A DNA stretch of 64,000 nucleotides, taken from positions 480,001 through 544,000 of the forward strand of contig CAVRJO010000002.1 in the NCBI GenBank assembly GCA_963722255.1, in the 5' to 3' direction. Position numbers and translations under genes: made by a program. Under the pieces are notes generated by a model. The model made no database searches. It saw only the letters and a list, made by a program, of their open reading frames with translations, and was not told where the DNA came from. The stretch is from Candidatus Babeliales bacterium. GTDB lineage: Bacteria; Babelota; Babeliae; Babelales; JANWKD01. Positions 20,249 to 59,974 of this stretch are shown here, piece after piece (position 1 is the stretch's first letter; each line of letters starts with the position of its first letter).

Positions 20249-20501
20249 TATAGAAGCCTTAAGAAAGATATAATTATTTTTAGTATTTAAATATAACAAG
20301 ATGATAACAATTATGAGCTGGTTGCTCAATAGTATTATTTAATGATAATCATCAATACAAAAATATTTATTGCTTCTCTTGAAGATATTTTTTCTCTATG
20401 AAAATATGCAAGGTAAACCGCCTGCGCTAAAAACTTATATAACTCGAATTCGATAATTTAAATTACAAGTCTACAAGCAAGAATTGTATGAACATCAATA
20501 A

Positions 20502-25425: not shown

Positions 25426-26481
25426 TTACACAATATTTTCTTTTTCTTGAACTGAAAAATCAATAAGATCTTGTGGTCCAACATCCAATGCAGTTCGTGT
25501 TTTGACAATAGATTCTTGTATTTTTTTATATATATTTTTTTTGTGCCTATAGCCCGGAATGGCCGATTTTTTACACATACGCAATGACCATAACATCCAG
25601 GCTGAACCTACCAAAGCATTAAGAGATCCTAGTGCAATACATGAATTTTTATACTCAAAATCTGCACTCGTTGAAAAAAATAGTAAAAAAATATTAAGGC
25701 TAAAAAAACTAATCGACGCCGTATTCATCGATGTTAAACAAAAATTCCAACCCAAAGGCTTCTTAGGATTTCTATCGTGCGCTTTTTTTAGTAAAAAATC
25801 GAGATGTGCCAGATATACATGATGAATCTCTAAATATTCATCAGCTTCAGGAACTAAAAATAGTTCACATTTCAAATCCTCAAGACTATTCAACTGATCA
25901 CCCCATTGCAAGCGCGCTGTTTCCCGTTTTACCGATTGTGTAAAATCTTTCAGTTCATTTTCAAAATCACGAAGATCTGAAAGCTCCTGTGTGCAATAAT
26001 TCTCCAATGAAAATAAGGTATGTAAATAATTCCTACATTGTTTATGAATTGAATTATTGTGTAAGGGTGGTACATAATGCTGAAATTTAAGCAATTCATC
26101 GAGTATCCTTGCACGTTCAAGAGAAATATCTTTTGTTGGATCACTCTTATGAAACTGTCCAATTAATGAACCTATTTTAGCCCTCACAATTGCATTAACA
26201 ACATCTTGATTTGGTTCATAATGATGAATCAAATAGTTCAATCCAATGCCATGCGGATCACAATAACGGAAAATTATATCTATTAATTCGATAGGCAACC
26301 TGTCAAATAATGATTGTTCTTTGAATGAATCATAGCTTTGTATAGCCTGATCTGTAAGCAAGGGTGTTTTTGATAAATTCTTGCAATCACCTTCCATACT
26401 GTTGAGCGCTAGAATACTCATAACGCAAAGATCTAATAAGAGCACTATAAATAAAACTATTCTTTTTTTGACAAAGAGCAT
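25426..26481 (-). CDS. secreted protein with F-box-like motif and two C-terminal TM helices
   Basis: SLFDRLPIELIDIIFRYC; signal peptide ending LNS-ME; ATG 26481 preferred. Confidence 0.65.
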   Translation of the reverse strand: MLFVKKRIVLFIVLLLDLCVMSILALNSMEGDCKNLSKTPLLTDQAIQSYDSFKEQSLFDRLPIELIDIIFRYCDPHGIGLNYLIHHYEPNQDVVNAIVRAKIGSLIGQFHKSDPTKDISLERARILDELLKFQHYVPPLHNNSIHKQCRNYLHTLFSLENYCTQELSDLRDFENELKDFTQSVKRETARLQWGDQLNSLEDLKCELFLVPEADEYLEIHHVYLAHLDFLLKKAHDRNPKKPLGWNFCLTSMNTASISFFSLNIFLLFFSTSADFEYKNSCIALGSLNALVGSAWMLWSLRMCKKSAIPGYRHKKNIYKKIQESIVKTRTALDVGPQDLIDFSVQEKENIV

Positions 26482-26616
26482 ATGCACCCCCCTTATACAA
26501 AGCTTGAATATGCAAAATGTCCCTTGCATTCACTGCATTTATTTATTATTCTCACCTATATAAAGTTCCATAAAACAAATCTATCATCTTATTGCTCAAT
26601 AAGGGAACAGTTCGCC

Positions 26617-29549: not shown

Positions 29550-30008
29550 TCAAATGACTCTAAACTCTAAAATATCCCGGAAATCAACATTCCATTCAGA
29601 AATTTTATTTCCACTTTCGGTAATTGTTTCCCTTGGGGTTACATATAAGTAACAGGTATTTGCATCAAAAGGTGGCAAACCTTTTGATCTTTCTTGAAAT
29701 ATTTCATAAAACAAACAATGGTTTTGCACAAATACCGTATTATTTTCTTTATATAAAACCCAAAGGGCAATCCATGGATTTTCTATGGGTCCAGCAAATT
29801 TTACTACAAAACAGGAAAAGCTGTGAGTTTTAATTCTTTCAATGGCTTCTCTCCATTGTTGTTTATATTCATCAACAGTCCACATATCAAGCGCCATATA
29901 AAAAGTTTCTTTTAAATCACCAATCGTAATTTGTCCTCTATACGCTTTAATATTATTAATAGTTTCCGGTTTTTTGCTTATTACTTCGATATTAAAATTT
30001 TTTATCAA
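29550..30008 (-). CDS. CdiI-like immunity protein (Enterobacter cloacae CdiI type), copy 3
   Basis: W...EYK.QW, WVLYKENNTVFVQN and R.T...G.KISEW..D motifs match the CdiI(ECL) family as I recall it. Confidence 0.75.
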   Translation of the reverse strand: MIKNFNIEVISKKPETINNIKAYRGQITIGDLKETFYMALDMWTVDEYKQQWREAIERIKTHSFSCFVVKFAGPIENPWIALWVLYKENNTVFVQNHCLFYEIFQERSKGLPPFDANTCYLYVTPRETITESGNKISEWNVDFRDILEFRVI

Positions 30009-30087
30009 TTTTTATTAACTTTCAATTGAAGTTTTATCTCTTTTACTTATAAAATCTCCGGTTATCCAAGCAGATTTAGGATCAAAT
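29988..30087. repeat. 100-bp direct repeat (3' end of TPR gene plus start of cdiI-like gene); other copies at 30523..30622 and 35772..35871
   Basis: gatattaaaattttttatcaatttttattaactttcaattgaagttttatctcttttac... occurs three times. Confidence 0.95.
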
Positions 30088-30543
30088 AACTCTAAACTCT
30101 AAAATATCCTGTAAATCAACACTCCATTCAGAAATTTTATCGCCATCTTCAGTTGTTGTTTCTCTAGGTAATATAATATATAAATAACACGAATTCGCAT
30201 CAAAAGGTGGCAACCCCTTCGATCGTTCTTGAAATATCTCATAAAATAAGTATTGATTGTGAATATAAATAACACTTTCTTCTTTATATAAAGTCCAAAG
30301 GACAATCCTTGGACTTTTTAATGTACCCTCAAAACACACAACGAGACATGAACTATCATGAGTTTTAATTCTTTCAATGCCTTCTTTCCATTGTTGTTTA
30401 TATTCATCTATCGACCAATTATCATAAGACATAATAAAAGTTTCAGTAAAATCCCCTACTGTAATTCTACCCCTATAATATTTTCTTCTATAAATAGTTT
30501 CTGCCTTTTTACTTATTACCTCGATATTAAAATTTTTTATCAA
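30082..30543 (-). CDS. CdiI-like immunity protein, copy 2
   Basis: Paralog of its neighbours; LWTLYKE...NQYLF, RETTTEDGDKISEWSVD. Confidence 0.75.
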   Translation of the reverse strand: MIKNFNIEVISKKAETIYRRKYYRGRITVGDFTETFIMSYDNWSIDEYKQQWKEGIERIKTHDSSCLVVCFEGTLKSPRIVLWTLYKEESVIYIHNQYLFYEIFQERSKGLPPFDANSCYLYIILPRETTTEDGDKISEWSVDLQDILEFRVI

Positions 30544-30616
30544 TTTTTATTAACTTTCAATTGAAGTTTTATCTCTTTTACTTATAAAATCTCTGGTTAT
30601 CCAAGGAGATTTGGCA

Positions 30617-31066
30617 TCAAATGACTCTAAACTCTAGAACATCTTTCAAATCAATTTTCCACTCAGAAATTTTATAACCATCTGTAATGGTTTCACGCGG
30701 TTTTACATATAAATAACATGTTTTTACATCGAACAGAGGCAATCCTTTAGCTATTTCATGAAACCCATCAAAAAAACAATGATTTTGCACAAAAACCATA
30801 TCATTTTCTTTATATAAAACCCAAAGTTCCACCCATGGATTTTCTTGTAGTCCGGTAAAATCTGCCACAAGACACGAACGATCGTGAGTTTTAATCCTTT
30901 CAATAGCTTCTTTCCATTGTTCTTTATACTCGTCTATAGTCCAATTATCAAAGGACATTAGAAAGGTTTCAGTAAAGTCTCCAACCGTGATTCTACCTCT
31001 ATAATATTTTTTTCTATTAACTGTTTCTGGTTTCTTACTTATTACTTCTATATTAAAATTTTTCAT
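30617..31066 (-). CDS. CdiI-like immunity protein, copy 1
   Basis: Paralog of its neighbours; WVLYKENDMVFVQN, RETITDGYKISEWKID. Confidence 0.75.
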   Translation of the reverse strand: MKNFNIEVISKKPETVNRKKYYRGRITVGDFTETFLMSFDNWTIDEYKEQWKEAIERIKTHDRSCLVADFTGLQENPWVELWVLYKENDMVFVQNHCFFDGFHEIAKGLPLFDVKTCYLYVKPRETITDGYKISEWKIDLKDVLEFRVI

Positions 31067-31293
31067 AGATTATTTGAACTCTTGATAGCTAAGTAAGAAA
31101 AAATTTTCATAAATCCTATCATTTTATTACAACCCTATCAATAAATTCTTTTTACTGGCTTGATTTATCTATTTTTTCGTGTAATATAAGCTACAATATA
31201 AAAATAGCTTTACAAAAAGCTACGCCCCTGGTAGCATTTATGCATATAAAATTTTGAACTAGAAACAAAACAAAATATACGAAAGGTACTATA

Positions 31294-31593
31294 TTGAGCT
31301 TACTAATAAATGAACTTAAAGATCCAACCTTTGCATTCGGCGAAATTTGCGCAATATTAGACCAAAAACCTATGCCAATCAGCGATCTAAATTTATGTAT
31401 TCAGAATAATATCATAGCACAAGGCGGTTTTGCTAATTTCTCAAAAAAAACAGGATTAGATGTAAATTATCTTCAGAATATTTTGCATCCATTAAATAAA
31501 CTGTTACTTCATGAGCTAAATTTTCTACTACAAGCTTTGGGTTTCTCATTTAATAAAAATCTAGAAAACATACTACTAACAGCAATGGTTTAA
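31294..31593 (+). CDS. degenerate addiction-module antidote-like HTH protein
   Basis: IAQGGFANFSKKTGL...LQNILHP...LQALGF parallels the N-terminal domain of the next gene. Confidence 0.55.
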   Translation: MSLLINELKDPTFAFGEICAILDQKPMPISDLNLCIQNNIIAQGGFANFSKKTGLDVNYLQNILHPLNKLLLHELNFLLQALGFSFNKNLENILLTAMV

Positions 31594-31680
31594 TTTTTCT
31601 CAAATAATTCACGCTTAATGCTTCTTTTCCAGTGCCAATTCACGATCAAAACATTAATAATAAGCGAATTAGAAATATCT

Positions 31681-32388
31681 ATGAAAGAAAAAATACTAAA
31701 CTTAAAAGAAAAAAATATCGCCTCAGAATATCTTAATTCTACTGCAAAACAAAATAATACCGGCGAAATACTCCTGGCTTTACACAATATTGCTATAGCT
31801 CAAGGGGGATTCACAAAACTAGCAAAAAATACAAATTTAAACCGTGAAAATCTCTACAAAATTTTACATCCTGAAGGGAATCCACAATTAAATACTTTTA
31901 TATTAATTTTGAACTGGCTTGGATTTGATCTTGCTTTTAAAGAAAAATCAACTCTCTTTAAACACGAAACAAAATTAAACACTATAGCGGACGCTTATCC
32001 AGGAATAGCAAAACAATGGTGCTACGCAAAAAACTCAATAACTCTCAATCAAATAAGTCCAACAAGTAAAAAAAAAGTATGGTGGAAATGTATTATAAGC
32101 CCTGAACACAACTGGGAAGCAACATGCCATAACAGAATTTTTAAAAAACAAGGTTGTCCTTTTTGTAGTGGCAAAAAAAGTTCAAATTCAAATAACCTTC
32201 AAACATTATACCCTGAAATTTCCAATGAATGGCATCCAACTAAAAATGGTGATTTAACCCCAAGTATTATCGCTGCAGGAAGTAATAAAAAAATATGGTG
32301 GTTATGTCAGAATGGCCATGAATGGCAAACTTTATGCAATAGTCGTACAGGTCACAACAGAAGCGATTGTCCATTTTGTATCTCTTAA
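31681..32388 (+). CDS. addiction-module antidote (HI1420-like) HTH fused to two DUF4379-type zinc ribbons
   Basis: EYLN...LLAL..IA.AQGG.T.LA..T.L.RENLYK.L...GNP.L.T; two WW.C...H.W...R....CPFC units; ATG 31681 preferred. Confidence 0.8.
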   Translation: MKEKILNLKEKNIASEYLNSTAKQNNTGEILLALHNIAIAQGGFTKLAKNTNLNRENLYKILHPEGNPQLNTFILILNWLGFDLAFKEKSTLFKHETKLNTIADAYPGIAKQWCYAKNSITLNQISPTSKKKVWWKCIISPEHNWEATCHNRIFKKQGCPFCSGKKSSNSNNLQTLYPEISNEWHPTKNGDLTPSIIAAGSNKKIWWLCQNGHEWQTLCNSRTGHNRSDCPFCIS

Positions 32389-32410
32389 ACATAATACTTT
32401 GCAAATAAAA

Positions 32411-35400
32411 ATGAAAACAAAAAAATCAAAATTATCTCTTGCAAAAACTCATCCAGAACTTGCAGCCCAATTGCATCCAATTAAAAATATACATATTAAC
32501 ATTACGACTATTTCACAATCTTGTACAAAACAAGTTATATGGATTTGTGAAAATGGACATGAATGGTTATCAACTCCTCGTGGTCGAACAAAAGCCCAAA
32601 ATAGCATTTGTAAGCAATGTGTTTCTTTAGCTTATACTCATCCTGATATAGCAAAAGAATGGCATTCAACTCGGAATATTGGACTTTCTATTTATGATTT
32701 TAATTCAGGATCACACAAAGTCGTTTGGTGGACATGTTCGATTAACAAGGATCATGAATGGCAATCAGAAATTCGTGGTAGAGTTAAAGGCATTGGATGC
32801 CAGGTTTGCAATAATCGTATTGCTATAAAAGATAATTGTTTATTAATTACCCATCCAAAAATTGCTCAAGAATGGGATTATGATATCAATAATTCTTTAA
32901 AAATACAACCAAATACCATTACTGCAATTAGTAGAAAAAAAGTTGCATGGAAATGTAATAATAATCATAAATGGGAAGCTGTTATTAGAGATAGAACTGC
33001 AAAAAATACTAAATGTGGTTATTGCATTGGTCGAAAAGTATCAATCGATAATAATTTGAGAGTTACCCATCCACAGATTGCATTACAATGGCATCCAACC
33101 AAAAATAAAACTCTTCTTCCAGAACAGTTTACTAAAGGAAGCGAAGTAAAAATCTGGTGGAAATGTTCTTACGTAGAAAATCATGAATGGGAAGCGTATA
33201 TATATAGTAGAACTTCTGGTCGCGATTGCCCATATTGTAATTATTGGAGCATAGAAAGTATACGACTATTTATTATTTCACTCATCCCAAATTTACATAC
33301 ATTTGAACCCATTGAGCTCTATTCTATATTTCTGCAGAATGGATCTTTAAATTCTAACGGCAAAAGTCGAACTTTTATCAAAAATTTCGTTTCTGGTAAA
33401 ATTCCTAAAGACATTCTTGAAAATGTTTCAGATACTCCATTAAAATTTGTTGAATTTGTAGAAAATCAGAGTGATCTACTAATAGAAGATAATAATGAAT
33501 TAAAAACCTTTGATGAATCTAATGTTATAACGCAAGAAAATGATCTTCCTATTATAGAAACAAAAGATATATTAGCTGCAATCGATAATAAAATTATTGC
33601 TAGTGCCGATGAAGAAACCATTGATTTTTTGATTAAATCTGCTGTTGCCAAAATTTGGCGCCATGCGTTTTATGATGAAAAAAAAGCTCATACTCAACTA
33701 GAACAATATCAAGATAAGGGAATGTATGCCAATGAAGTAAAAAAATTATTTACTAAAGGTTATTATGGTGCCAAAAATCTGATTATCCCCATTGGATATA
33801 GCTTTCATAGTCAGCCAAATCTTATGCAAAGATATATTGCATATCTTGTACAAAAAGAAAAGCGAATCGGCAATTGGTCAGGAACTGGCTCAGGAAAAAC
33901 TCTTTCAGCTATTTTGGCAAGCAGAATAATTGATGCGCGATTAACAATAATTTGCACACCTAATAATGTTATTGATAATTGGAAAAGACAAATTCATGCT
34001 ACCTATCCTGATAGCTTAATTTATACAAAAGAAGTAATTCTATCTCTAAAAAACACAAAAGATCGCCATCAATATTTAATTCTTAATTATGAATTCTTTC
34101 AACAACCTAATTCTGAAATAAAACTAAAAAAACTAATTGAAAATGTAGACATCGATTTTATTATTATCGACGAAATACACTATTCCAGGCAAAAAAAAGT
34201 TGAACAAATTTCTAAGCGAAAATTGCTCATTACAGCTTTTTTATCTCAAGTGTCTTTAAAAAATAATAATTTACATGTGCTTGGTATGTCTGCAACCCCT
34301 GTCATTAACAACCTCTTTGAAGGCAAGACCATGATAGAATTAGTTACAGGCGCTGAACATAAGGATTTGAATACCAAGATAACGGTTAATAATTGTATAG
34401 CGCTTTATAAAAAATTTGTTATTCATGGTATAAGAGAAATGCCAAGATATAAATACAAAGTTAATCAAATAATTGAAGAAATTGATTGTAGCGCTGAAAT
34501 TCCTGAGATAAAAGAACTTCAAAATATTGTTAAACTAGAAGCTATTCTTACCAAAACAAAAATGCCTTCAATCAAAAAGCATTTACGGCCAAAAACAATT
34601 GTCTATACTTTTTATCGCCAAGGCATTGAATCCATTCTTCAAAATGAAATTGAACAACGGGGTTGGAAAACAGCATTTTTCAATGGTGACAATAAAGAAG
34701 GTCTGGACTCATTTATTGAAGGAGATGCTGATATTCTTATTGCATCAAGCTGCGTTGGAACGGGAGTTGATAGACTACAAACTGTTTGCAATAGATTAAT
34801 TATCAATTGCTTGCCCTGGACACATGCAGAATTTGAGCAATTAAAAGGCAGAATCTACAGACAAGGTCAACTAAAAAATGAAATAGACGTTATTATTCCT
34901 ATTACTTATGCCAATATTAATGGAACAAGATGGTCGTGGTGTGACTCAAAATTGAAAAGAGTAAATTATAAAAAAGATATTTCAAGCGCCGCTGTGGATG
35001 GCGTTATTCCAGAGGGTCACTTACGGACACCCGAACAATCTCACAAAGATATCATGCAATTACTTGCTCGTCTTGATAAAGGTGAGCTTCATACACTAGA
35101 TCGCCAAATAATTAATATTCCCCTCACAGAAGAAATGCAATCTATAGCTAAAAGAACAATTAGTGACCTTAGTAAAAAGAATCTAAAAATTAATAAAGAA
35201 ACAAGTAACGAAACTCATGAACGCTTTATCAATAATCCTCAAGAATGGGCCGAATACCATAAAATATATCGCGAGGCCAGACAAGGATGGCCGGTAATTC
35301 CATATCAAGAAGCTATTAAATATTGTATGGCAAGACCTAATAAAATTGTAGGTGATTTTGGATGTGGCGAAGCTTTCTTATCCAAAGAACTCATGAATAA

Positions 35401-35767
35401 AGTCTATTCATTTGATCATATTGCAATCAATGAGAATGTTATTGCATGCGATATTTCCCATGTTCCTTTAATAGATTCTATTTTAGATATCGCAGTTTTT
35501 TCACTATCTTTAATGGGCACAAATTTTATTGATTACTTAAGAGAAGCAAAAAGATCTCTCAAGCTCGATGGGCTTTTGTGGATAGCTGAACCCACATCAA
35601 GAATCAAAGATATAACACTATTTAAAGAATTACTTGAACGCATCGGCTTTGCCGTATTACCGATACATATAAAAGGACAATTTACATTTATCTCAGCTTT
35701 AAAAACTGAAAGAGATGTAAACGAAATTGCGATACAAAATATTAATTATACAAATGTCTTAGATTGA
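32411..35767 (+). CDS. fusion of four DUF4379-type zinc ribbons, an SF2 helicase/ATPase and an Rrp8/NML-like SAM methyltransferase
   Basis: Four THP...W.C...H.W...R...CxxC repeats; GTGSGKT, DEIH, SATP, QLKGRIYRQGQ; YH..Y...WP..P, DFGCG, SFD, ACD, VPL, AVFSLSLMGTN, IAE..SR; ATG 32411 preferred. Confidence 0.85.
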   Translation: MKTKKSKLSLAKTHPELAAQLHPIKNIHINITTISQSCTKQVIWICENGHEWLSTPRGRTKAQNSICKQCVSLAYTHPDIAKEWHSTRNIGLSIYDFNSGSHKVVWWTCSINKDHEWQSEIRGRVKGIGCQVCNNRIAIKDNCLLITHPKIAQEWDYDINNSLKIQPNTITAISRKKVAWKCNNNHKWEAVIRDRTAKNTKCGYCIGRKVSIDNNLRVTHPQIALQWHPTKNKTLLPEQFTKGSEVKIWWKCSYVENHEWEAYIYSRTSGRDCPYCNYWSIESIRLFIISLIPNLHTFEPIELYSIFLQNGSLNSNGKSRTFIKNFVSGKIPKDILENVSDTPLKFVEFVENQSDLLIEDNNELKTFDESNVITQENDLPIIETKDILAAIDNKIIASADEETIDFLIKSAVAKIWRHAFYDEKKAHTQLEQYQDKGMYANEVKKLFTKGYYGAKNLIIPIGYSFHSQPNLMQRYIAYLVQKEKRIGNWSGTGSGKTLSAILASRIIDARLTIICTPNNVIDNWKRQIHATYPDSLIYTKEVILSLKNTKDRHQYLILNYEFFQQPNSEIKLKKLIENVDIDFIIIDEIHYSRQKKVEQISKRKLLITAFLSQVSLKNNNLHVLGMSATPVINNLFEGKTMIELVTGAEHKDLNTKITVNNCIALYKKFVIHGIREMPRYKYKVNQIIEEIDCSAEIPEIKELQNIVKLEAILTKTKMPSIKKHLRPKTIVYTFYRQGIESILQNEIEQRGWKTAFFNGDNKEGLDSFIEGDADILIASSCVGTGVDRLQTVCNRLIINCLPWTHAEFEQLKGRIYRQGQLKNEIDVIIPITYANINGTRWSWCDSKLKRVNYKKDISSAAVDGVIPEGHLRTPEQSHKDIMQLLARLDKGELHTLDRQIINIPLTEEMQSIAKRTISDLSKKNLKINKETSNETHERFINNPQEWAEYHKIYREARQGWPVIPYQEAIKYCMARPNKIVGDFGCGEAFLSKELMNKVYSFDHIAINENVIACDISHVPLIDSILDIAVFSLSLMGTNFIDYLREAKRSLKLDGLLWIAEPTSRIKDITLFKELLERIGFAVLPIHIKGQFTFISALKTERDVNEIAIQNINYTNVLD

Positions 35768-35798
35768 CTTTGATATTAAAATTTTTTATCAATTTTTA

Positions 35799-36527
35799 TT
35801 AACTTTCAATTGAAGTTTTATCTCTTTTACTGATAAAATCACCTGTTATCCATGGAGATTTAGGGTCAAATGATTCTAAAATAATTTCATAATTAGACTT
35901 ACTTAAATGAATCCCCCTAAATCGTTCATTTATAAATTCTTCAATATTTAAAACATCATAAGAACGAGTATCATCATAAACATATTCTAAATTATCTAAT
36001 CCTTTTTTCATAAGATCAAAACCTTTTGCAAGATTACCTTTTTCTATATAAAAACGACCTAAATCAATATAATTCCACACATATCGATCGCATAATTCAA
36101 TTGAATTATTCAATGTTTTTTGATAAAACTCATCATTTTCTTTAAAAAGATAATACCATGATTTGGTATATTCAATTAAAGACATCAATTCATTATCTTG
36201 AGTTTTTAAATTACATAATCTTTTAAACAATTCATCATCAAAATAAATACAGTGATAAATAACATAAATAAGCAAAAGCATTACCTTAATATTATAAGGA
36301 TCACTTACTAATGCTTTTTCAAGACAATCAATTGCTTTTAAGTCGTCGTGCAATGGGGACCGATATACTGTTAAAGCTAATTTAACCCATATTTCAGTAT
36401 CCAACGGATTATTAGCTAAATAACAATCTAAAAATATTTCTAGAGTTTCAGCCGATTGCTTTGTTTTCTCTTCATTAAATACTTTAATTAATTTATTTAA
36501 TTGATCTTCATTTAAATTATTCATCAT
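35799..36527 (-). CDS. TPR-like helical protein, putative cognate immunity protein
   Basis: TPR-like AIDCLEKAL..DP.N and LGRFY...G...KG; starts 3 bp after the toxin-like gene; paralog at 55958. Confidence 0.65.
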   Translation of the reverse strand: MMNNLNEDQLNKLIKVFNEEKTKQSAETLEIFLDCYLANNPLDTEIWVKLALTVYRSPLHDDLKAIDCLEKALVSDPYNIKVMLLLIYVIYHCIYFDDELFKRLCNLKTQDNELMSLIEYTKSWYYLFKENDEFYQKTLNNSIELCDRYVWNYIDLGRFYIEKGNLAKGFDLMKKGLDNLEYVYDDTRSYDVLNIEEFINERFRGIHLSKSNYEIILESFDPKSPWITGDFISKRDKTSIES

Positions 36528-36530
36528 CTA

Positions 36531-39410
36531 TTAATCAATCTTAATTAATTTTCCAATTATTCTTTCTGACCTACCATAGAATCCATTTAAACTTATAACT
36601 TTTCCATCACTTATTCTAACTCTTATTGTTGCTTCACATCCATTGATAAATGTCTCAATTTGATTCGATGGTTCCTCTAAATAATTAAGTAAATCAGCTT
36701 TTAAAATTTTTTCAATAAATTTATTGCAAACATCGTTATCAGAAATACCCAATTTTGACAATTGATGATCAGTATGAACAAGATGGTCATACGTTTTACG
36801 TGAAATATTAAATTCTTTGATAACATTTTGACCCGATGGCTCAACAGCATAAATAATGTCTCTATCATTTTTAATTGAAGAATCAACTTGGGTTTTTTGT
36901 ATTACCTTTCCCAGAGAAGGAGGCAAACAAAAATCCTCTCCACCATTTCCATTATTGCTTCTAAACAACGAACCAAAATTAGAAACAGCAGCAACGCTCA
37001 CAGCTGCCGGAGTAGAAGCTGCGCCCTCAACAGCAATAGCTCCAACATCTTGAACAACTTCGGCAATAGCACCAAGACTTTCAGCAAAAGGAACTGCTAA
37101 CGCTCCTCCACTGGAAATACCTGGACCGTGAGGAAATATAGTTCCTATACCATCGCTCAATGCTCCAGAAAATTCTGCAAAAGCAGTTGTTTTTGTAAGC
37201 AATTTTGGAATAGAACCAACAGCTTTATTTAAAAGCGAATCAACCACAAGCTGTGCTGCAAATTTTCTTTTTTCTTGCGGTGATAATTGATGCCATTGAT
37301 TAAAAAATTTGTGCAATGATTCATTGCATGCCTTTGCATAAGCAAATTGCTCTTCAGGAGATGAAAGACCAAGTACAGATGAATGCTTTGCAAGATCAGC
37401 TATACCAAAAACCATATTCTTCATACCATCGAGTGTTCTTGAACAATATGCAATCGGATGCATCACAGTATCAACAGCGCATTGAGCTACCTCTTTAATT
37501 GGCTCCTTATAACCATCGGTCAATACATCAAAAATATCTTTTGCAAAAACCAATCCCTCTGATGCTAAGGTTGTACGATAATCTTTATTGAGTTGATGTA
37601 TCGCATGTATAAGTTTTTTATGCGTCTCATACAGTTCAAAATGTTGATCATCTTTTAAAAAAGCAGCCTTAAGCGAAACATCTTTTACATGTTTCATTAG
37701 TTCATGATTCACTGCATTCTGTTCTTGCGTTCCTGAAAACTTGCTCAACTCTTCATAGCTTACTGTTCCATACTTTGATGAAACCAGTAAATCTAAGCCT
37801 AAAGCTCGAAACAACTTTTCCATAGATGGAGAACGGTAAAGCTCAGCTCGACTAAACGTTTTTAATTCTGAATTAAGGCGAGCGATTGTAACTGCAAGTG
37901 CATCTTGTGCTTCAGGAGACAGTTGCGCTTTTTGAAACTGTTCATTAAGATTTTGCAGTTCTACTTTAAGATGATCAACATTAAGCTTATTTTCTGGTGA
38001 TTCATTGAGTCGCTTAATTTCATTAATTAAATTTGCAACAAGTGGGACGGTTCTACGCTGCAATGTTTCATGCTCTTGAGTTGGTAATGTTCTGGAAAAA
38101 TCACCACACTCTAAAACTAATGCTTCACTATTTTTTGGATTGCGCAATGCATTAACTGTTGTATGCGCAAGATCTGAGTAACATCGTGATAACGGATTAT
38201 TGGAACAACCTTTTTCTACATAATGGGCTACCGTCGAATAAATTCTTTTCTCATTTTGATTCCGTGCGCCCGAAAGAGCGATATCAAATAAGAGCAAACG
38301 ATCTTTTATCTGCTCCTGCGTAATGGTAGATGGCAGTGCAATCTCATTAAGAATCGAGGTATCATACGTATAAAAACGTGGAAGACCATGCTCATTTAAA
38401 AGCTTCTCTGCATTCTGAACAAAAATATAATCATCCTGATTACGAGCTAATGTTTCATATATAAGCCGCGCAACTTCTTGCGGTGTTTTGCATAGTGGAA
38501 TTTTTTGTAGTAGGTCAATAACTTCAGGAGTAGGGTTTGTTATTTCATAAGCTTGGCATACTCTATTACAATAAGCATCTAAATGCTTATTATAGAGTTT
38601 ATTAAGCGCTTGATACTGTTTAATTCCATAACCGGTCGTTTGATTTTTATATGCATCAACAATCTCTTTTGCTTCTGCAAATCTATTTTCAGCAGCCAAT
38701 CCATTAACTTGAGAAAGATGTTTACAAAAACTATTATTCAAAACTTTATCTTTGAAATCACTCATAGTTCCTGAGAAAGAGGTGGTACTGAATAGCCCGT
38801 AAATAAGGCCAGCTGGCTTATTTACGGTTAATAATTTTAACCATGAACCATAGGTTGTTTCTTCTTTAAGTATCTGTACAAATTCTCGATTGCCTTGTGT
38901 TGCAAACTCTTTGATAAGTGATACATACTCATTGGGTTTTGTTGCTTTCAAATAGTCTGTTACTATTCGAGCAACCTGATATTTTTCAAATGAATTTAGC
39001 TCTAATTTTGGATCACCTGACCTAGCATAAAGAACAGGAATCAATCTATCGATAGTTTGTTGGTTTATACTATTTAAAAAAGGATACGGTTGATTTTTAT
39101 AGCAATCTGTAAAAGAAGTTAATGCCTGTATATCAAAAGTTCTTGCTGCAACATCTATACTGTCAAATCCAACAGTATAACTATTTTTAAGTTGTTGAAA
39201 ATTGTTTGCTACATGCGCACTATTATTTAATACACTTATTTGATTTCTTATACCCTCATGCCTCATATAAGCATAATCACTTAAACTCAAAGAAGTTCTT
39301 TGTTGAGATGAATGATTGAATGTTACAACGGGTTTATGCTGCATGCCATATGCATGAACTGTCAAAAATATAGATAAAAAACTATAGTTAATATTTGAAT
39401 TGCGTTTCAT
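36531..39410 (-). CDS. 959-aa secreted protein, putative polymorphic toxin
   Basis: Signal peptide, long helical body, Gly/Ala-rich hydrophobic segment, NNGNGG linker, compact C-terminal domain with HLVHTDH and a beta-rich ING..ATIRV.ISDGKV.S..GF; followed by immunity-like genes. Confidence 0.6.
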   Translation of the reverse strand: MKRNSNINYSFLSIFLTVHAYGMQHKPVVTFNHSSQQRTSLSLSDYAYMRHEGIRNQISVLNNSAHVANNFQQLKNSYTVGFDSIDVAARTFDIQALTSFTDCYKNQPYPFLNSINQQTIDRLIPVLYARSGDPKLELNSFEKYQVARIVTDYLKATKPNEYVSLIKEFATQGNREFVQILKEETTYGSWLKLLTVNKPAGLIYGLFSTTSFSGTMSDFKDKVLNNSFCKHLSQVNGLAAENRFAEAKEIVDAYKNQTTGYGIKQYQALNKLYNKHLDAYCNRVCQAYEITNPTPEVIDLLQKIPLCKTPQEVARLIYETLARNQDDYIFVQNAEKLLNEHGLPRFYTYDTSILNEIALPSTITQEQIKDRLLLFDIALSGARNQNEKRIYSTVAHYVEKGCSNNPLSRCYSDLAHTTVNALRNPKNSEALVLECGDFSRTLPTQEHETLQRRTVPLVANLINEIKRLNESPENKLNVDHLKVELQNLNEQFQKAQLSPEAQDALAVTIARLNSELKTFSRAELYRSPSMEKLFRALGLDLLVSSKYGTVSYEELSKFSGTQEQNAVNHELMKHVKDVSLKAAFLKDDQHFELYETHKKLIHAIHQLNKDYRTTLASEGLVFAKDIFDVLTDGYKEPIKEVAQCAVDTVMHPIAYCSRTLDGMKNMVFGIADLAKHSSVLGLSSPEEQFAYAKACNESLHKFFNQWHQLSPQEKRKFAAQLVVDSLLNKAVGSIPKLLTKTTAFAEFSGALSDGIGTIFPHGPGISSGGALAVPFAESLGAIAEVVQDVGAIAVEGAASTPAAVSVAAVSNFGSLFRSNNGNGGEDFCLPPSLGKVIQKTQVDSSIKNDRDIIYAVEPSGQNVIKEFNISRKTYDHLVHTDHQLSKLGISDNDVCNKFIEKILKADLLNYLEEPSNQIETFINGCEATIRVRISDGKVISLNGFYGRSERIIGKLIKID

Positions 39411-39421
39411 AATTTTTTTTC

Positions 39422-41014
39422 TTACTGTGGTTTTGGTAATTGATTATACAGTCCACCTGCCACTCCGACAGCTTGAACACCCAACCCTGCCCAACCAAAA
39501 ACCCAACTCCACCATGCCGAATTTTTTTGAACTTCTAATTGTTCTTTACTAGAACGTTCAGCTAATACCAAAGATTCTTTGTTATGAATTCGCTGTAAAG
39601 CGATTGTTTCTTGATGACTAGCTTCTTGAAATTCTTTTTGAGCTAATGCTTGTCTTTCTTGCCAGGTATTAGCAAAATCTATTTGCATTCTAGATCCATG
39701 ATATTGCAAACCTAAACTTCCTACCAAATGAAGAAATTGGGTAATAAATGGATAGATTTCTTTGAAAATTTTATAATATCGCTTCCAAACTGTTTTGGAA
39801 TTTTCTTTGGCAATAGTTCGAATATATGCGATAGAGTTTTTATAATCATCTATAGCAACTTCAATTTCACAGTTATTAAGAGTAAATTCATCATCAACAT
39901 TTCTTTCTAATGCAAATAGATAAGCTAAGCATTTCATGGCATTCAATTGCCGCATACTGAAGCTGCTCGTTTGTTTTGTTAACCAATTTTTATCATTACG
40001 ATTAAAAGCTTGCACAAATTTTAATGGTGGTAGTGATGGCATTGCTTTAGCTAATTTAAATTCATTGCTTTCATCATTTTCTTCATCTGAATCATTATCT
40101 TCAAATAAACTATCTATGAATTTTTCACGCCTTTTAGAATCAGGCATCGCAATCTTAAACATTGATCCACAAAAGCGATCTTTTATTTGCGGCGGTAACT
40201 TTTTAATTTCATTGGTCGTTGCAATAAATAAAAGATTTTTATGCGTTTCACAATGATCAAGAATTCCTAAAAATTGTTCTATTGTGCCTTCATCTGGATT
40301 ATTCTTTTTACCATGTTTATTAGTAAGTCCGGTTAATTCATCAAAAATGATAGCTAAATACTCATCGCTCTTAAGGAGTGGCTCAAATATATACCTAAAA
40401 TTTACTTGTCCTGAATTTTTATATTGATTCAATAGTGATGAAGCGATAATAAATTGCCGAGGAAAGTTACAATAATCTGCGATGGCTTTTGCAAGGGAGC
40501 TTTTTCCAGAACCCGGAGGACCATACAAAAGTATTTTGTTAATTGCAAAACTTTTTACTCTATTTAATGATCTATAGGTCGTTGGGTTTTTCATTAATCC
40601 TATTTGAAAACGCAATAAGCTTGGGCAATTATGCAATAACGAGACTATAAGATTTGAATCTAGTTTAGTATACGAGCGAATATCTTCACCCTCAAACATA
40701 GGTTTAAACAATGAAAGATGTTCTTGATTATTTCCATAATTTTCATTATTTGGTATTGAAGATTGAACACGTTCTTTTTCTAATTCAATCTTTGCAAGCT
40801 GAATTGCAAACTTAAATAATGGCACAAGATTTCCGAATGTTTTTTGAAATTCATCCTCTTTTTCTTTTCCTTTATCTTGTTCCGGCATAATAAAAAAATT
40901 AGGTTTCTGATCAGAAAATACGAATCCTTTATTACCATCCTGTTCCATGCAAAAAGATTGATTCATGAATAAAACCGACATGATGATTAAAAAAAGAAAG
41001 CGATGATGCAACAT
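39422..41014 (-). CDS. classic AAA+ ATPase with signal peptide and C-terminal hydrophobic tail
   Basis: LLYGPPGSGKS, IIFDE, FIATTN, IKDRF, MPD...R; ATG 41014 with signal peptide ending SFC-ME. Confidence 0.85.
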   Translation of the reverse strand: MLHHRFLFLIIMSVLFMNQSFCMEQDGNKGFVFSDQKPNFFIMPEQDKGKEKEDEFQKTFGNLVPLFKFAIQLAKIELEKERVQSSIPNNENYGNNQEHLSLFKPMFEGEDIRSYTKLDSNLIVSLLHNCPSLLRFQIGLMKNPTTYRSLNRVKSFAINKILLYGPPGSGKSSLAKAIADYCNFPRQFIIASSLLNQYKNSGQVNFRYIFEPLLKSDEYLAIIFDELTGLTNKHGKKNNPDEGTIEQFLGILDHCETHKNLLFIATTNEIKKLPPQIKDRFCGSMFKIAMPDSKRREKFIDSLFEDNDSDEENDESNEFKLAKAMPSLPPLKFVQAFNRNDKNWLTKQTSSFSMRQLNAMKCLAYLFALERNVDDEFTLNNCEIEVAIDDYKNSIAYIRTIAKENSKTVWKRYYKIFKEIYPFITQFLHLVGSLGLQYHGSRMQIDFANTWQERQALAQKEFQEASHQETIALQRIHNKESLVLAERSSKEQLEVQKNSAWWSWVFGWAGLGVQAVGVAGGLYNQLPKPQ

Positions 41015-41230
41015 TATAGACTCCTTACTTGCATTAACTACCGTTGATAAAATTGATTCAATGGTACGTAATTTCAAAAAAAAGTAAAGTATCATTGCTT
41101 ACAAAGAGTTTATTGAACCCTTAAGAGCAGTGTCTCACAATTGCATTTAATAAAAATTAATCATATGCTGGTCGCAATATTTTTGTTGAGAACAGTTATT
41201 CATTTACCAAATTATTATTTGAAAGCAGCT

Positions 41231-41662
41231 ATGATGATTAAAAAAAATAGTAAAAAGCTATGGATTTTAAGCCTTTGTTTACTCTCCTTCTTTATGAATA
41301 CGACTCGTCCATATTCTTTACTACATGATAAACTCAACTCAGAATACAAATGCAGAGTAATCTCCATTTCCGGCTTTATTGGTTTTTATTCGTTGGCTCT
41401 TGGAATTATATATTCAGTCTTGGGACATAATCGCAAGCTCGATATGCCTACAACTCCCAGCGAAAGGCATTTTTTTGTGTTACGCAATTTTTTACCAAAA
41501 GAAGATTTAGAAAGAATCAAAGCGCATGATCAAATTGTTGCTGACCGAGAGATAACAGTAGGCAAAGCTTTAGTAACATTCGGGGCATTGTGTATTGCAG
41601 GCGGTATTACTTTAGCTTATTTACAGGAATTACGCATAAACACTAGCATTGTTTTGATCTAG
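41231..41662 (+). CDS. membrane protein whose 3' end is interrupted by an IS; paralog of 42936..43343
   Basis: Shares D.P...E...F..R....KEDLE with 42936; removing the IS restores ...AYLNEIFTALTK-stop. Confidence 0.7.
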   Translation: MMIKKNSKKLWILSLCLLSFFMNTTRPYSLLHDKLNSEYKCRVISISGFIGFYSLALGIIYSVLGHNRKLDMPTTPSERHFFVLRNFLPKEDLERIKAHDQIVADREITVGKALVTFGALCIAGGITLAYLQELRINTSIVLI

Positions 41663-42762
41663 AGCCGTAATGCATCGATTTAAAAAAGCAGGATTTTTTT
41701 TCTTAAGAGCTCTGATAGCGGTTTCTGCGTTTTTATAACCATTTTTTTTCATTTCCAATTGAACGAGAGAATATGCTAAAAGCACGGCACAAATATGGTC
41801 ATATTGTGTAACTATTTTTCGAGAAAAACATTCCTGTAAACCTAAACTTTGCTTAGTAGTTCTATTTAATTTCTCTATGCCCCATCGCTTTTTATAATTC
41901 ATAGCATGTTGTTTTGGAGTAGCTTTATAGGTTGCTGCTTGGTAAACAATTGTTTCATTGCCATGCTTATCAATGCGCCTTACAGCGGTAATATATAAAG
42001 AAAGGCCGCGCCAAATAACTTGTACAGTTCGAGCCATTTGGCGGCCTTTTGGACGTATTTCTTTAATTTCACGCAGCTTTTTCTTTTTTCCTTTGTACTC
42101 AACAACACGATTACTATGCATGCGCACTTCAGTTTCAATGTTATTTTCAATAGCCCATTGTAGATACTTTACAGTAGCATATGCACCATCTAAAACAGCA
42201 ATAATTCGTGTATTAGGGAAAAGTTTTTGAGCGGTATTAATGAAATGTTGTACAGTAATTCTTAAAGCTTCGCTTGGATTTGTATAAAATTCCTTACCAA
42301 AAGTAAAAGCAGCATTTATAGGCACAACAAACTTACGATCAGAAATAGCACCAATAATCAATTTGTATGCATTAATCGACCTGCCTATCTTAGTATCAAA
42401 AAGCCATCCCGTACCTTCCATCATTTGAGAATGAATTTTTTTGATAGCCGTTTCATCTATAACTGCTAATAATTCTTTTTTATCAGCGAAAATTTGTTGT
42501 GCAATTTTTTTTGATTGTTCAAGGCTTTCATGACCTGGCCGTAACATTCGGCTAATGGTATCTCCGCTTTTTTTGATTACCCTACCCATATTCTCAAAAC
42601 TTCGTTTGCCAATATTTGTAAGAATTGTAAGAAATGGATAAGTTGCTATAGTATTAACGATGATCATTTTAGGCTCTCCCTTGAATTAGGCTTTTTGGGA
42701 GAGTCTATTATTTTTTAAAAATACGTCTAGATCAAATCTTTAAATACTCTGCGGAAGTCCTG
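41624..42762 (-). mobile_element. insertion sequence, IS701/IS4-like
   Basis: Inverted ends caggaattacgca / caggacttccgca; flanking duplication tattta at 41618-41623 and 42763-42768. Confidence 0.85.
41630..42667 (-). CDS. DDE transposase, IS701/IS4-like
   Basis: IDET, LDGAY and Y..RWGIE...R..KQSLGL motifs. Confidence 0.88.
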   Translation of the reverse strand: MIIVNTIATYPFLTILTNIGKRSFENMGRVIKKSGDTISRMLRPGHESLEQSKKIAQQIFADKKELLAVIDETAIKKIHSQMMEGTGWLFDTKIGRSINAYKLIIGAISDRKFVVPINAAFTFGKEFYTNPSEALRITVQHFINTAQKLFPNTRIIAVLDGAYATVKYLQWAIENNIETEVRMHSNRVVEYKGKKKKLREIKEIRPKGRQMARTVQVIWRGLSLYITAVRRIDKHGNETIVYQAATYKATPKQHAMNYKKRWGIEKLNRTTKQSLGLQECFSRKIVTQYDHICAVLLAYSLVQLEMKKNGYKNAETAIRALKKKNPAFLNRCITALDQNNASVYA

Positions 42763-48610: not shown

Positions 48611-48997
48611 TTGTCCATGAATGCGAAATGTACTCTTGTTCTATTTTTTTTACTCTTACCGTTATCTCAGAATATAATTTGTATGGAATCATCAGAAGCA
48701 ATGAAAGCTATATTACTTACCATGCCTTGGGCTGACAAACACGAAATGGTGTTAAATGCCATTGAAGATGCAAAAAGTTCCGAAGATGGTATTAAAAAAA
48801 TTTCATGTGAAGGATTTGATGCGGTGTTTAACACAAAAAATGACATCGTTTCTTTATATTATAACGCTGAAAATCTAAGTGAAAGTATGGGATGCTCATT
48901 TTTTTTAAAATCTATAGGTATTAAAGAAGAACAAAAAACACCTCCAACCACTCCTCAACAAAATAACAATTGGTGGCCTTCTTGCACATTACAATAG
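48611..48997 (+). CDS. small secreted protein ending in a CaaX motif (CTLQ)
   Basis: Paralog of its neighbours; C-terminus WWPSCTLQ. Confidence 0.75.
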   Translation: MSMNAKCTLVLFFLLLPLSQNIICMESSEAMKAILLTMPWADKHEMVLNAIEDAKSSEDGIKKISCEGFDAVFNTKNDIVSLYYNAENLSESMGCSFFLKSIGIKEEQKTPPTTPQQNNNWWPSCTLQ

Positions 48998-55957: not shown

Positions 55958-56626
55958 ATGATTGAACAAAAAATAAACATCCTAAAAAAAATTGCTCTCA
56001 GCATAGAAACTTTTAATCACAAATCAGACCAACACAAACAATCACTTACAAAAACTTTTTTAAACTATTTAAAAAATAACCCTTATGATACTGATATCTG
56101 GGTTAAATTTGCACTCGTCTCACATTGTTTATTAAGGAATGATGCTCAAGCAATCGAATGCCTCACAACAATACTTACCTATAATCCCGGTAATATATAT
56201 GTGACCATGCTTTTAGTTATCATATCTGAAAAAATCCATCCTATGAGCGATGATCTTTTTGAACAATTATCAGCATTGCAACCTTCAAGTAAAGAACTCT
56301 TATCGCTTATAGAATATCAAAAGGCATGGTACTATCTTGAAAAAGATGAAGCAATTTACCGATATACTCTTGAAAACTCCTTAGACCTTTGTGGTAGATT
56401 TGTATGGAATTTAAGGGCCCTTGGAACAGTTTATTTTTTGCGTAATAACATAAAAGCTGGACGATCATTATTTGAAAAAGCACTTAACAATATTCAACAT
56501 GTTTATAGTCTCCAAGAATATGAACAGATCGGCATTATCAATATTGATGATTTTTTCAATGCTCGTCTCAAGGGAACTCATATTATGCAACCTATGGTGC
56601 TTATGATGATACAAGCACTCAAATAA
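55958..56626 (+). CDS. TPR-like protein, paralog of 35799..36527
   Basis: YL.NNP.DT.IWVK.AL, EL.SLIEY.K.WYY, LC.R.VWN and F.N.R..G.H are shared. Confidence 0.75.
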   Translation: MIEQKINILKKIALSIETFNHKSDQHKQSLTKTFLNYLKNNPYDTDIWVKFALVSHCLLRNDAQAIECLTTILTYNPGNIYVTMLLVIISEKIHPMSDDLFEQLSALQPSSKELLSLIEYQKAWYYLEKDEAIYRYTLENSLDLCGRFVWNLRALGTVYFLRNNIKAGRSLFEKALNNIQHVYSLQEYEQIGIINIDDFFNARLKGTHIMQPMVLMMIQALK

Positions 56627-59776: not shown

Positions 59777-59974
59777 TACTAAATACCTTTGTACTACATC
59801 TAATAAAACTTTTTTCAAATATTTAATCGTTATACTGCCATTCGTTTGCACAATACACAATTCAGAAAGAACAATCAAGAAGCCTCACTCTAATAGCTAA
59901 CTATTGAAAATTAATAATAACCGGTTTTATGCTACAAAGATGAGTTCAAATACTATATTAAGAGGAGCTTTTTT

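Follow-up and report, generated by a model that had tools for sequence, protein, structure and literature searches.

A probable polymorphic toxin family of the Babeliales: a toxin-immunity locus with a signal-peptide AAA ATPase as frequent partner

Described systems and the locus under study

Polymorphic toxins count among the chief weapons with which bacteria fight one another. For intracellular parasites, warfare against their own kind was mostly thought not to occur, and Odyssella is presented as an exception among them in the accessible text of Zhang et al. (2012). We analysed a window (the whole stretch of DNA considered here, 64,000 nucleotides) from a Candidatus Babeliales bacterium (assembly GCA_963722255.1, contig CAVRJO010000002.1, positions 480,001 to 544,000 of the forward strand), in which the genes of an AAA ATPase, of a protein of 959 residues and of a protein resembling tetratricopeptide repeats (TPR) follow one another closely on the minus strand, with three CdiI_N genes farther along the same strand. 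We hold it to be highly probable that this is the toxin-immunity locus of a polymorphic toxin family specific to the Babeliales, or Dependentiae.

Much of what composes such a locus is already known: polymorphic toxins as such, the Ntox35 domain, the pairing of Ntox21 with CdiI, and Sec-dependent delivery. A Neisseria protein served to typify Ntox35, which was placed in the type II secretion system class "T2SS (MafBN)"; a BECR RNase fold was predicted for it, its conserved residues were given as "H, KH", and no immunity family was listed for it (Zhang et al. 2012, in the same accessible text). According to the available part of a recent preprint (bioRxiv 10.1101/2025.07.24.666436), the Ntox35 toxin of Staphylococcus aureus has two histidines, H199 and H205, spaced by 6, and the H205A mutant is inactive. 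For the order to which the window belongs, the available text on Babela massiliensis (PMC4378268) speaks of toxins only as type II toxin-antitoxin pairs (HicAB and MNT-HEPN), and neither "AAA" nor "toxin" occurs in the part of the Chromulinavorax paper at hand. The literature search, outside which lay subscription-journal papers and supplements, found no paper joining "Dependentiae" and "polymorphic toxin", nor anything relevant on Babeliales or Dependentiae with AAA, toxin or immunity. To this extent the undescribed toxin class proposed by a first-pass annotation of the window is borne out: no description seems to exist of the carrier (body) domain, of a TPR-like family of immunity proteins to Ntox35 or of an AAA ATPase with a signal peptide as partner.

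The AAA ATPase gene occupies 39422..41095 (minus strand) as a longest open reading frame (ORF) of 557 residues. Its likely start is an internal ATG at 41014, which is also the end coordinate of the first-pass annotation; the protein would then have 530 residues and the N-terminus "MLHHRFLFLIIMSVLFMNQSFC|MEQ". The toxin gene (36531..39410, minus strand, 959 residues) starts 11 bp past the stop of the ATPase gene, and the helical-repeat (TPR-like) immunity gene (35799..36527, minus strand, 242 residues) starts 3 bp past the stop of the toxin gene. Four tightly coupled starts had been reported; the spacings of 11 and 3 bp stand, but the fourth start, 6 bp past the stop of the immunity gene, opens a mere CdiI_N stump of 16 codons and a stop (35742..35792, minus strand).

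The probable toxin, its immunity proteins and the history of the array

The tip of the toxin, together with its linker, covers residues 818-959 (36531..36959, minus strand; tip proper about 846-959), as delimited by alignment, model and fold search. It aligns throughout with homologs which pass the Pfam gathering score of Ntox35 (PF15534, 23.6 bits): P0002 scores 27.8, L020 23.8, L027 32.4 and 26.8, L028 27.5, L032 29.7 and L033 30.8. Three histidines are present, His876, His879 and His882; in ten aligned tips H882 is invariant and H876 nearly so, the two being spaced by 6, and D906 and R950 are conserved as well. The model of the tip, with a predicted local distance difference test (pLDDT) of 85.4 and a predicted template modelling score of 0.82, has helices (54-90) and then a four-stranded sheet (98-105, 108-117, 120-128 and 137-140, in model numbering). 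When this model was submitted to the VIA search, the five best chains were all CdiA-CT toxins (6vek_A with Z 5.9, root-mean-square deviation 4.0 and 110 aligned residues; 6cp8_B, 5.8; 7vmc_B, 5.3; 7m5f_C, 5.1; 6cp9_A, 4.7), and RelE, BrnT, RegB and Nsp15 ranked below them. A PDB sequence search with the tip alone gave chance-level matches only. The VIA Z values being modest, it is on all these lines taken together that we base the assignment of the fold. The alignment and the model together strongly support an Ntox35-like, predicted BECR-type RNase domain with the His876/His882 pair and Arg950, in agreement with the BECR-like RNase first guessed for this tip. The same tip is found on proteins of 121 to 1845 residues with unrelated N-terminal parts, one of which has PT-HINT (L033, PT-HINT and Ntox35).

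The 242-residue protein has neither an N-terminal hydrophobic segment nor a signal peptide. Pfam gave for it only sub-threshold TPR_17 and TPR_14, and a PDB sequence search only chance-level matches. A homolog of its gene lies directly downstream of 14 of the 15 other genes with an Ntox35-like tip (the window being left out of this count). The complex of the tip and this protein was modelled with an interaction score (ipSAE) of 0.76 (0.77, 0.74 and 0.76 in the individual runs) versus 0.01 for the best of three controls; the mark applied to this score is reached by 116 of 157 solved complexes and by 2 of 215 mismatched pairs. In this model the pLDDT of the partner is at least 84, and at least 58% of contacts recur between runs. 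The interface takes in residues 59, 65 and 133 of the tip model, which are H876, H882 and R950. The complex, a prediction, supports the binding of the tip by the 242-residue protein and suggests that the active site is occluded. Because of the co-occurrence and of the distance between the complex and its controls, we consider it strongly supported, from sequence and model, that this cytoplasmic helical-repeat protein is the cognate immunity of the window's tip, as had been supposed from the order of the genes. Two further copies of the TPR-like immunity gene, neither with a toxin to match, are present in the genome; in the window, a second, orphan gene of this family is found at 55958..56626 (plus strand, 222 residues, phmmer E 4.5e-44 against the 242-residue protein), with no toxin gene beside it. 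In all, three TPR-like and three CdiI_N immunity genes stand against two toxins of the body family in this genome.

The remainder of the toxin consists of a Sec-type signal peptide (residues 1-22, "HAYG|MQHKP", within 36531..39410, minus strand) and of a helical body (residues 23-817; 36960..39344, minus strand), which is the conserved domain of the family and whose core lies at profile positions 230-550. The body ends with a Gly/Ala-rich, moderately hydrophobic segment of low pLDDT (residues about 755-815; 36966..37148, minus strand), directly before the linker, whose motif NNGNGG stands at residues 819-824; this segment is kept in the closest members of the family and missing from those with EndoU tips. 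The model of the toxin is all-helical to about residue 817, with a pLDDT of 70-93 over about 120-520 only. The architecture first described, a helical body, a hydrophobic Gly/Ala-rich segment, NNGNGG and a His-containing alpha+beta tip, is thus found again, with the tip and linker now placed at 818-959. Pfam at E<=0.01 names no family at all in the 959-residue protein, which confirms that it has no haemagglutinin, RHS, LXG, PAAR or VENN motif. Foldseek and VIA searches with the 959-residue model, which is above the recommended size, returned only generic helical repeats (Z<=8.7), and no score of 0.9 or more was obtained for the toxin family in the ESM Atlas.

We aligned the toxin bodies with their tips cut off and used the resulting profile, A7, to search a library of 1.84 billion representatives; 162 clusters were matched at E<=1e-3 and 42 at E<=1e-30. 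Body matches were present in 40 of 261 Babeliales genomes and in 5 of 21 families; these 261 genomes are all those of the phylum that were searched and all belong to one order, which is what the count covers. The last 170 residues of the 113 A7 hits of at least 640 residues fell into 32 BLAST clusters, 15 of them singletons. Among 48 picked representatives Pfam named the tip in nine (Ntox35 in three, EndoU_bacteria in two, Ntox21 in two, Ntox37 in one and Cytotoxic, of the colicin E3 type, in one), found nothing in 37 and gave sub-threshold, unrelated matches in two; further EndoU tips were found in loci L026, L029 and L030. The genes downstream vary with the tip: behind one unnamed tip type comes DUF2247 and behind another DUF6980, and EndoU tips are followed by arrays of ORFs of 100-190 residues, one of which includes an orphan EndoU fragment of 124 residues (L029). 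Across the order, the body half and the tip half of the toxin also occur apart from one another. A word-index search retrieved two near-full-length relatives only, with 38-39% identity and the same tip type, and a pattern scan of genome contigs with a three-protein alignment gave 219 pattern matches, none of which was confirmed.

The body homologs hence bear non-homologous C-termini and differing downstream genes, which is what a homolog search had been expected to return if the first-pass proposal of a polymorphic toxin was right. Three features by which Zhang et al. (2012) recognise polymorphic toxins are found in this family: a conserved N-terminal region with diverse tips, downstream immunity genes which vary together with the tips, and orphan or standalone cassettes. 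The last are represented by the three CdiI_N genes and the stump, by the EndoU fragment of L029 and by tandem short tip-immunity cassettes in L012.

Two other members of the family may be mentioned here. The second toxin of the genome (C1:595912-599472) has 1186 residues, the signal "SQSLT|MEQQ", an unnamed tip and no AAA gene upstream; downstream of it (C1:595912-601227 region) come an ORF of 279 residues and then an orphan TPR-like immunity gene at C1:600556-601227. In a genome of the same family as the window's (L021:8976-11425, plus strand), the orthologous toxin is split into ORFs of 232 and 573 residues next to intact AAA and immunity genes; either a pseudogene or an error of assembly may account for this.

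The three CdiI_N genes lie on the minus strand at 30617..31066 (gene a, 149 residues, ATG start, Pfam CdiI_N E 1.3e-21), 30082..30543 (gene b, 153 residues, E 7.3e-21) and 29550..30008 (gene c, 152 residues, E 1.8e-24). CdiI_N proteins match "ECL CdiI" in the PDB (4ntq_B; E 6e-15 for gene c), and the Ntox21 tip of P0110, a member of the body family, matches the other chain of that entry, 4ntq_A. CdiI_N is present in 30 of the 261 genomes, often as arrays, and of 19 other Babeliales loci, 12 have an Ntox21-like tip whose end lies directly upstream of a CdiI_N gene. These pairs emerged from the search for the CdiI_N family; BLAST of Ntox21 tips and CdiI_N over the first 80-odd loci had given no pair outside the window. 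No Ntox21 tip stands beside the CdiI_N copies of the window's own genome. It is strongly supported, from sequence comparison, that the three genes are orphan immunities against the Ntox21 tips (of the Enterobacter cloacae CdiA-CT type) which the same toxin family carries elsewhere. Their reading as cognate immunities of the 959-residue toxin was rejected, as its tip co-occurs with the TPR-like gene and CdiI_N with Ntox21 tips.

The array is tied to the operon by a direct repeat. A sequence of 114 nucleotides, 92-95% identical between copies, is present at 29983-30096, 30518-30631 and 35767-35880, and consists of a cdiI start, a 6-bp spacer and about 82 nucleotides of the 3' end of the 242-residue gene. 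Two of the three CdiI_N genes, b (repeat 30518-30631) and c (repeat 29983-30096), thereby have a remnant of the tail of the immunity gene upstream, and gene a has upstream sequence of its own, distinct from that of b and c. The stump itself reads TTG ATA AAA AAT TTT AAT ATC AAA GTC ..., that is MIKNFNIKV, and the intact genes open with MIKNFNIEV. Since the repeat is common to both, we conclude that array and operon were once contiguous. As read from these repeats, the array arose by tandem duplication of a unit made of the immunity gene tail and cdiI, and a helicase/methyltransferase block afterwards came to part it from the operon. The first-pass annotation had rightly seen three cdiI-like genes downstream, intact and CdiI_N by Pfam, and its suggestion of orphan immunities is strengthened by the 4ntq pairing, the Ntox21-CdiI_N loci and the repeats; it did not mention that 4.7 kb of plus-strand sequence intervene.

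This intervening block (31294..35767, plus strand), beyond which the intact CdiI_N genes lie 4.7 kb from the stump, contains an ORF of 99 residues, a HigA-like/DUF4379 gene and, according to Pfam, a gene of 1151 residues composed of four DUF4379 domains, ResIII/Helicase_C and Methyltransf_8; PADLOC gives weak DrmD-like helicase matches in it. A DUF4379 zinc-ribbon/helicase block adjoins both body-family toxin loci of the genome, in the window at 31294-35767 (plus strand) and at C1:591269-594071 (minus strand), the latter some 2 kb upstream of the gene for the second toxin; the HigA-like gene and the methyltransferase domain are those of the window copy. The block could be a mobile or defence element which favours toxin loci, or its double occurrence could be a coincidence. 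Three transposase genes are found in the 64 kb, at 41630-42667 (minus strand, IS701/IS4-like), 52924-54204 (minus strand, ISNCY) and 62680-63774 (minus strand, IS4), the first of them directly upstream of the AAA-toxin operon region. A GDP-mannose 4,6-dehydratase at 58651-59878 (minus strand) is broken into two ORFs of 270 and 152 residues, which match the N- and C-terminal parts of TIGR01472; it is probably a pseudogene.

The AAA ATPase, delivery and competing explanations

The ATPase matches Pfam AAA (PF00004) over residues 188-308 with E 2.6e-20 and 73.6 bits (cut-off 21.2), and its best sequence match in the PDB is the D2 domain of p97/VCP (E 5e-23). The conserved motifs are present: Walker A (G192-K198), the pore-loop tyrosine Y225 in a pore-loop-like sequence NQY(K)NSG, Walker B (D252/E253), the sensor N295 and the arginine finger R307. 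Judged by its sequence, it is a classical-clade ATPase with intact motifs. Past the ATPase module come the segment "LGLQY", which is weakly hydrophobic, then a stretch rich in Q and E and, at the C-terminus, a hydrophobic tail rich in Gly and Trp; Pfam shows no peptidase domain. Among 5.8 billion clusters there are eight close relatives, all unnamed, and after them generic CDC48. Some AAA paralogs are fused to other modules, such as a protein of 894 residues with ankyrin repeats and AAA (L024:2863-5547, plus strand) and one of 1083 residues (L101:6688-9939, plus strand), both of which begin with signal-peptide-like segments.

An AAA gene is the immediate upstream gene on the same strand for 11 of 39 body genes and lies one small gene away for 5 more, which makes 16 of 39; among the first nine loci the linkage was found in seven. 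The gaps in the 11 adjacent pairs, which come from several families of the order, run from -50 to +28 bp. In one clade (loci L069, L070 and L071, and L068) a small ORF of 133-223 residues with a signal peptide stands between the AAA gene and the toxin gene; its product may be a third component. Since 23 of the 39 body genes, including the second family member of the window's genome, are without a nearby AAA gene, the ATPase is not obligatory. The partnership is frequent, which retains the linkage first noticed at this one locus without making it universal. As to the ATPase being a dedicated accessory of the toxin, we lean towards it, by a little.

The N-terminus of the ATPase deserves attention in its own right. 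In 35 of 39 AAA ORFs a signal-peptide-like segment opens the protein, in many of them with a textbook cleavage site followed by Met and an acidic residue ("AHA|MEED", "ISA|MEPQ", "LNA|MEVED"); in these the n-region is basic, the h-region is short, and the residues at -1 and -3 are small. The same kind of start is widespread in the genome: 192 of 1623 ORFs begin with a signal-peptide-like segment ending in [GASC]-Met-[EDQN], for example "SLFS|MEKE", as do 27 of 3395 control windows, and no other residue comes near Met in frequency at that position after the signal. Both the toxin and the AAA ATPase have this N-terminus, and the two secretins and a hexosaminidase of the genome bear ordinary signal peptides. 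In the window, it is also found in ORFs at 3297-4172(-), 4342-5169(-), 9991-10932(+), 12094-13074(+), 15125-15556(-), 16620-17969(-), 19130-20329(-), 25426-26529(-) and 48611-48997(+), none of which has an NCBIfam match. The motif of signal peptide and Met-Glu may be a lineage-specific sorting or cleavage signal, and it may mark the sorting of a very large secretome in organisms which have only the Sec and secretin pathway.

The genome (1.62 Mb in 2 contigs, about 33% G+C, 93% complete) encodes two secretins. No match was found in it for the T6SS (type VI secretion system) sheath VipB (PF05943, for which the control matched in E. coli), for VirB4 or for FHIPEP; TpsB/ShlB (PF03865) had no match either, nor did it have one in any of 14 control genomes. 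No phage-tail genes, nor genes for a contractile sheath or tube, were seen among the ORFs of the window. Secretins with no match for the T6SS sheath, VirB4 or FHIPEP agree with Babela, where, by the accessible text of Pagnier et al. (2015, PMC4378268), no secretion system other than a type II system was found. The Sec signal of the toxin and the secretins would match, by analogy, the Sec/T2SS class of polymorphic toxins as it appears in the available part of Zhang et al. (2012). An absence of any recognisable delivery machinery had been reported for the locus; this holds for known delivery motifs in the toxin but not for delivery as a whole, given the Sec-type signal peptide of the toxin and the two secretins.

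We propose that the toxin would be exported by Sec and then released, possibly by way of the secretin pathway, and that its target would be competing Babeliales within a shared host cell. The body and the Gly/Ala-rich hydrophobic segment would serve for binding and for passage through the membrane, and the tip would cleave RNA in the cytoplasm of the target. In the cytoplasm of the producer, H876, H882 and R950 would be covered by the 242-residue protein. The AAA protein, in which the motifs for ATPase activity and the pore loop are intact and which bears a signal peptide of its own, would unfold, prime or move the toxin, and could work in the periplasm, at the cell surface, in the host cytosol or at the cytoplasmic face of the inner membrane. 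The first-pass annotation had pictured it as an exported ring, anchored in the membrane, which would be an unfoldase or translocase. A place outside the cytoplasm is conceivable because the bacterium is bathed in host cytosol and imports ATP.

Among the alternatives, it is unlikely that the locus is an effector module directed at the host. RNase toxins and ATPase would in that case be secreted into the protist cytoplasm, the immunity proteins protecting the producer before export; the RNases would break down the RNA of the host, to kill it or to harvest nucleotides, and the ATPase would use host ATP on substrates of the host or among the effectors. In the accessible texts, signal peptides are reported on 79 of 126 ankyrin proteins of Babela (PMC4378268) and on 78% of those of Chromulinavorax, proteins with Sec signals being thought to act in the host, and the nine signal-peptide AAA-Ulp1 proteins of Babela are interpreted as working inside the cytoplasm of the amoeba (Pagnier et al. 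2015, PMC4378268). The ankyrin-AAA fusion of L024 (2863-5547) with its signal-peptide-like start points the same way, as do the lineage-wide N-terminus shared by toxin and ATPase (the 192 of 1623 ORFs) and the fact that these organisms do not synthesise nucleotides and take up ATP from the host, three genes for TLC-type ATP/ADP translocases being present in the genome. However, orphan immunity arrays against tips which the genome itself does not encode make little sense for self-protection alone. Tip swapping, the tandem cassettes of L012, the orphan EndoU fragment of L029 and the combination of PT-HINT and Ntox35 in L033 are hallmarks of interbacterial conflict, and host-directed toxins of intracellular bacteria usually come without immunity genes (Zhang et al. 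2012, accessible text). The orphan immunities against the tips of other strains are the strongest argument for conflict among bacteria over attack on the host.

Two further alternatives concern the place where the ATPase works. It might face the cytoplasm from the inner membrane, held by an uncleaved anchor, strip the immunity protein and feed the toxin to Sec or to another channel, which we regard as improbable, though it is the conservative choice as to where the ATPase acts. Bcs1, Msp1 and FtsH are membrane-anchored AAA proteins which offer analogues. ATP is certain in the cytoplasm, the Walker A and B motifs, the sensor and the pore-loop aromatic residue are intact, extra weakly hydrophobic segments follow the ATPase module, and a cytoplasmic immunity protein bound to the tip, as modelled, would have to be removed before export. 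Yet the N-termini resemble canonical signal peptides of the cleavable sort, the toxin and about 190 other ORFs having the same type, and basic residues precede the segment. By the positive-inside rule, such residues stay on the cytoplasmic side, which would leave the N-terminus inside and the ATPase outside. It seems more doubtful still that an exported ATPase, anchored in the periplasm or at the cell surface, unfolds and threads toxins across the outer membrane or arms them there. Host ATP bound for the ATP/ADP translocases would have to cross that compartment and could fuel the enzyme, and the N-terminus of signal peptide and Met-Glu would be the sorting tag of a lineage-specific export route.

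The ATPase might, lastly, be a mere frequent neighbour in islands of genes for secreted proteins, with no functional tie to the toxin. There are several AAA paralogs per genome, some of them beside ankyrin and other genes (L023, L024), the surroundings are rich in ankyrin/WD40 and signal-peptide ORFs, and the 23 body genes without a nearby AAA gene fit this too. We nevertheless find it quite unlikely: in 11 loci across several families the two genes are on the same strand with the short gaps or overlaps given above, and genomes of the order, which have about 1000-1600 genes, have only 1-8 hits to the AAA profile, so that the chance of immediate adjacency is estimated at well under 1 in 100 per gene (a rough estimate, related genomes being non-independent). 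That the locus is an anti-phage system is not suggested by PADLOC, which gave only IetA-like AAA matches and the weak DrmD-like helicase matches.

Several observations weigh against our reading of the locus as that of a polymorphic toxin with an ATPase accessory. Toxicity, RNase activity, secretion and neutralisation are all things which we infer. The window's own tip gave no Pfam match at E<=0.01 and its model no PDB match by Foldseek at E<=1e-3, and its VIA Z-scores, all below 6, are in a range where a common arrangement alone can explain the similarity. Confidence in the body model is confined to about residues 120-520, and the folds that it matches are generic ones, which leaves the proposed role in binding and translocation without structural support. 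The three closest full-length homologs share the tip type of the window, swapping being visible only at greater divergence, and one member with an Ntox35 tip, L067, the exception among the 15, has no immunity gene downstream. For the accessory, 23 of 39 body genes (one of them at a contig start) have no AAA gene within two genes upstream, and neither does the second toxin of the genome; moreover a cleaved signal peptide would place an ATPase outside the cytoplasm, which is unusual.

Meaning of the locus and comparison with known systems

The Dependentiae are widespread and barely cultured parasites of protists. They would keep a toxin family of their own, with dozens of tips, matched immunities and orphan arrays, and competition between strains inside shared hosts is therefore implied. 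The locus would supply an immunity family for Ntox35, for which none was listed in the accessible text of Zhang et al. (2012), as well as a new carrier domain. The pairing with the ATPase raises the question whether, in a bacterium living in the cytosol of its host, an ATP-driven machine can operate beyond the bacterial cytoplasm. If the ATPase were indeed exported, there would be an ATP-powered extracytoplasmic step of secretion, possible only for bacteria bathed in host cytosol.

Among the described systems which resemble this locus, T6SS and the Photorhabdus virulence cassettes or extracellular contractile injection systems (PVC/eCIS) have, like it, a classical-clade AAA ATPase (ClpV or CDC48-like) encoded with toxins of the polymorphic type. 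Unlike them, the window's genome gave no match for VipB and the locus showed no phage-tail genes; their ATPases are cytoplasmic recyclers without signal peptides (in part Zhang et al. 2012, accessible text). The AAA-Ulp1 proteins of Babela massiliensis (Pagnier et al. 2015, PMC4378268), compared here by their description in the accessible text, belong to the same order, have atypical signal peptides and form an expanded lineage-specific family. They differ by a permuted Ulp1 peptidase and a host-directed reading, and no linkage to toxins is described for them in that text.

The contact-dependent inhibition (CDI) system CdiB/CdiA/CdiI, of type V, shares with our locus the combination of Ntox21, or CdiA-CT(ECL), with CdiI_N, RNase tips of the BECR type and orphan immunity arrays. 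By Pfam, the window's toxin has neither filamentous haemagglutinin repeats nor VENN, and its delivery must differ from that of CDI. The S8-BetaH-Ntox35 system of S. aureus (bioRxiv 10.1101/2025.07.24.666436) is closer in several respects: as far as the available part of the preprint describes it, the toxin is exported by Sec and has an Ntox35 tip with a pair of histidines spaced by 6, a cytosolic immunity protein is modelled over the active site, and an accessory with a signal peptide, which there acts extracytoplasmically on the toxin, is co-encoded. In that same part, the accessory is an S8 protease without need of ATP, whereas here it is an AAA ATPase, and the carrier is BetaH in a Gram-positive bacterium, whereas here a large helical body is found in a diderm intracellular parasite.

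The system of Neisseria, MafB/MafI with MafA, which stands for the class "T2SS (MafBN)", is like our locus in its Sec signal, its conserved N-terminal region and its exchangeable C-terminal toxin, in the immunity gene directly downstream and the orphan cassettes, and in the accessory gene upstream of the toxin gene. MafA is a lipoprotein. The window's toxin differs from MafB in that Pfam finds no MafB/DUF1020 domain (PF06255) in it, the MafB lead of the ESM Atlas being weak (0.81), and its body is longer and consists of a different helical domain, seen so far only in Babeliales-like sequences. The upstream partner differs too, since in place of a lipoprotein the window encodes an AAA ATPase with a signal peptide.

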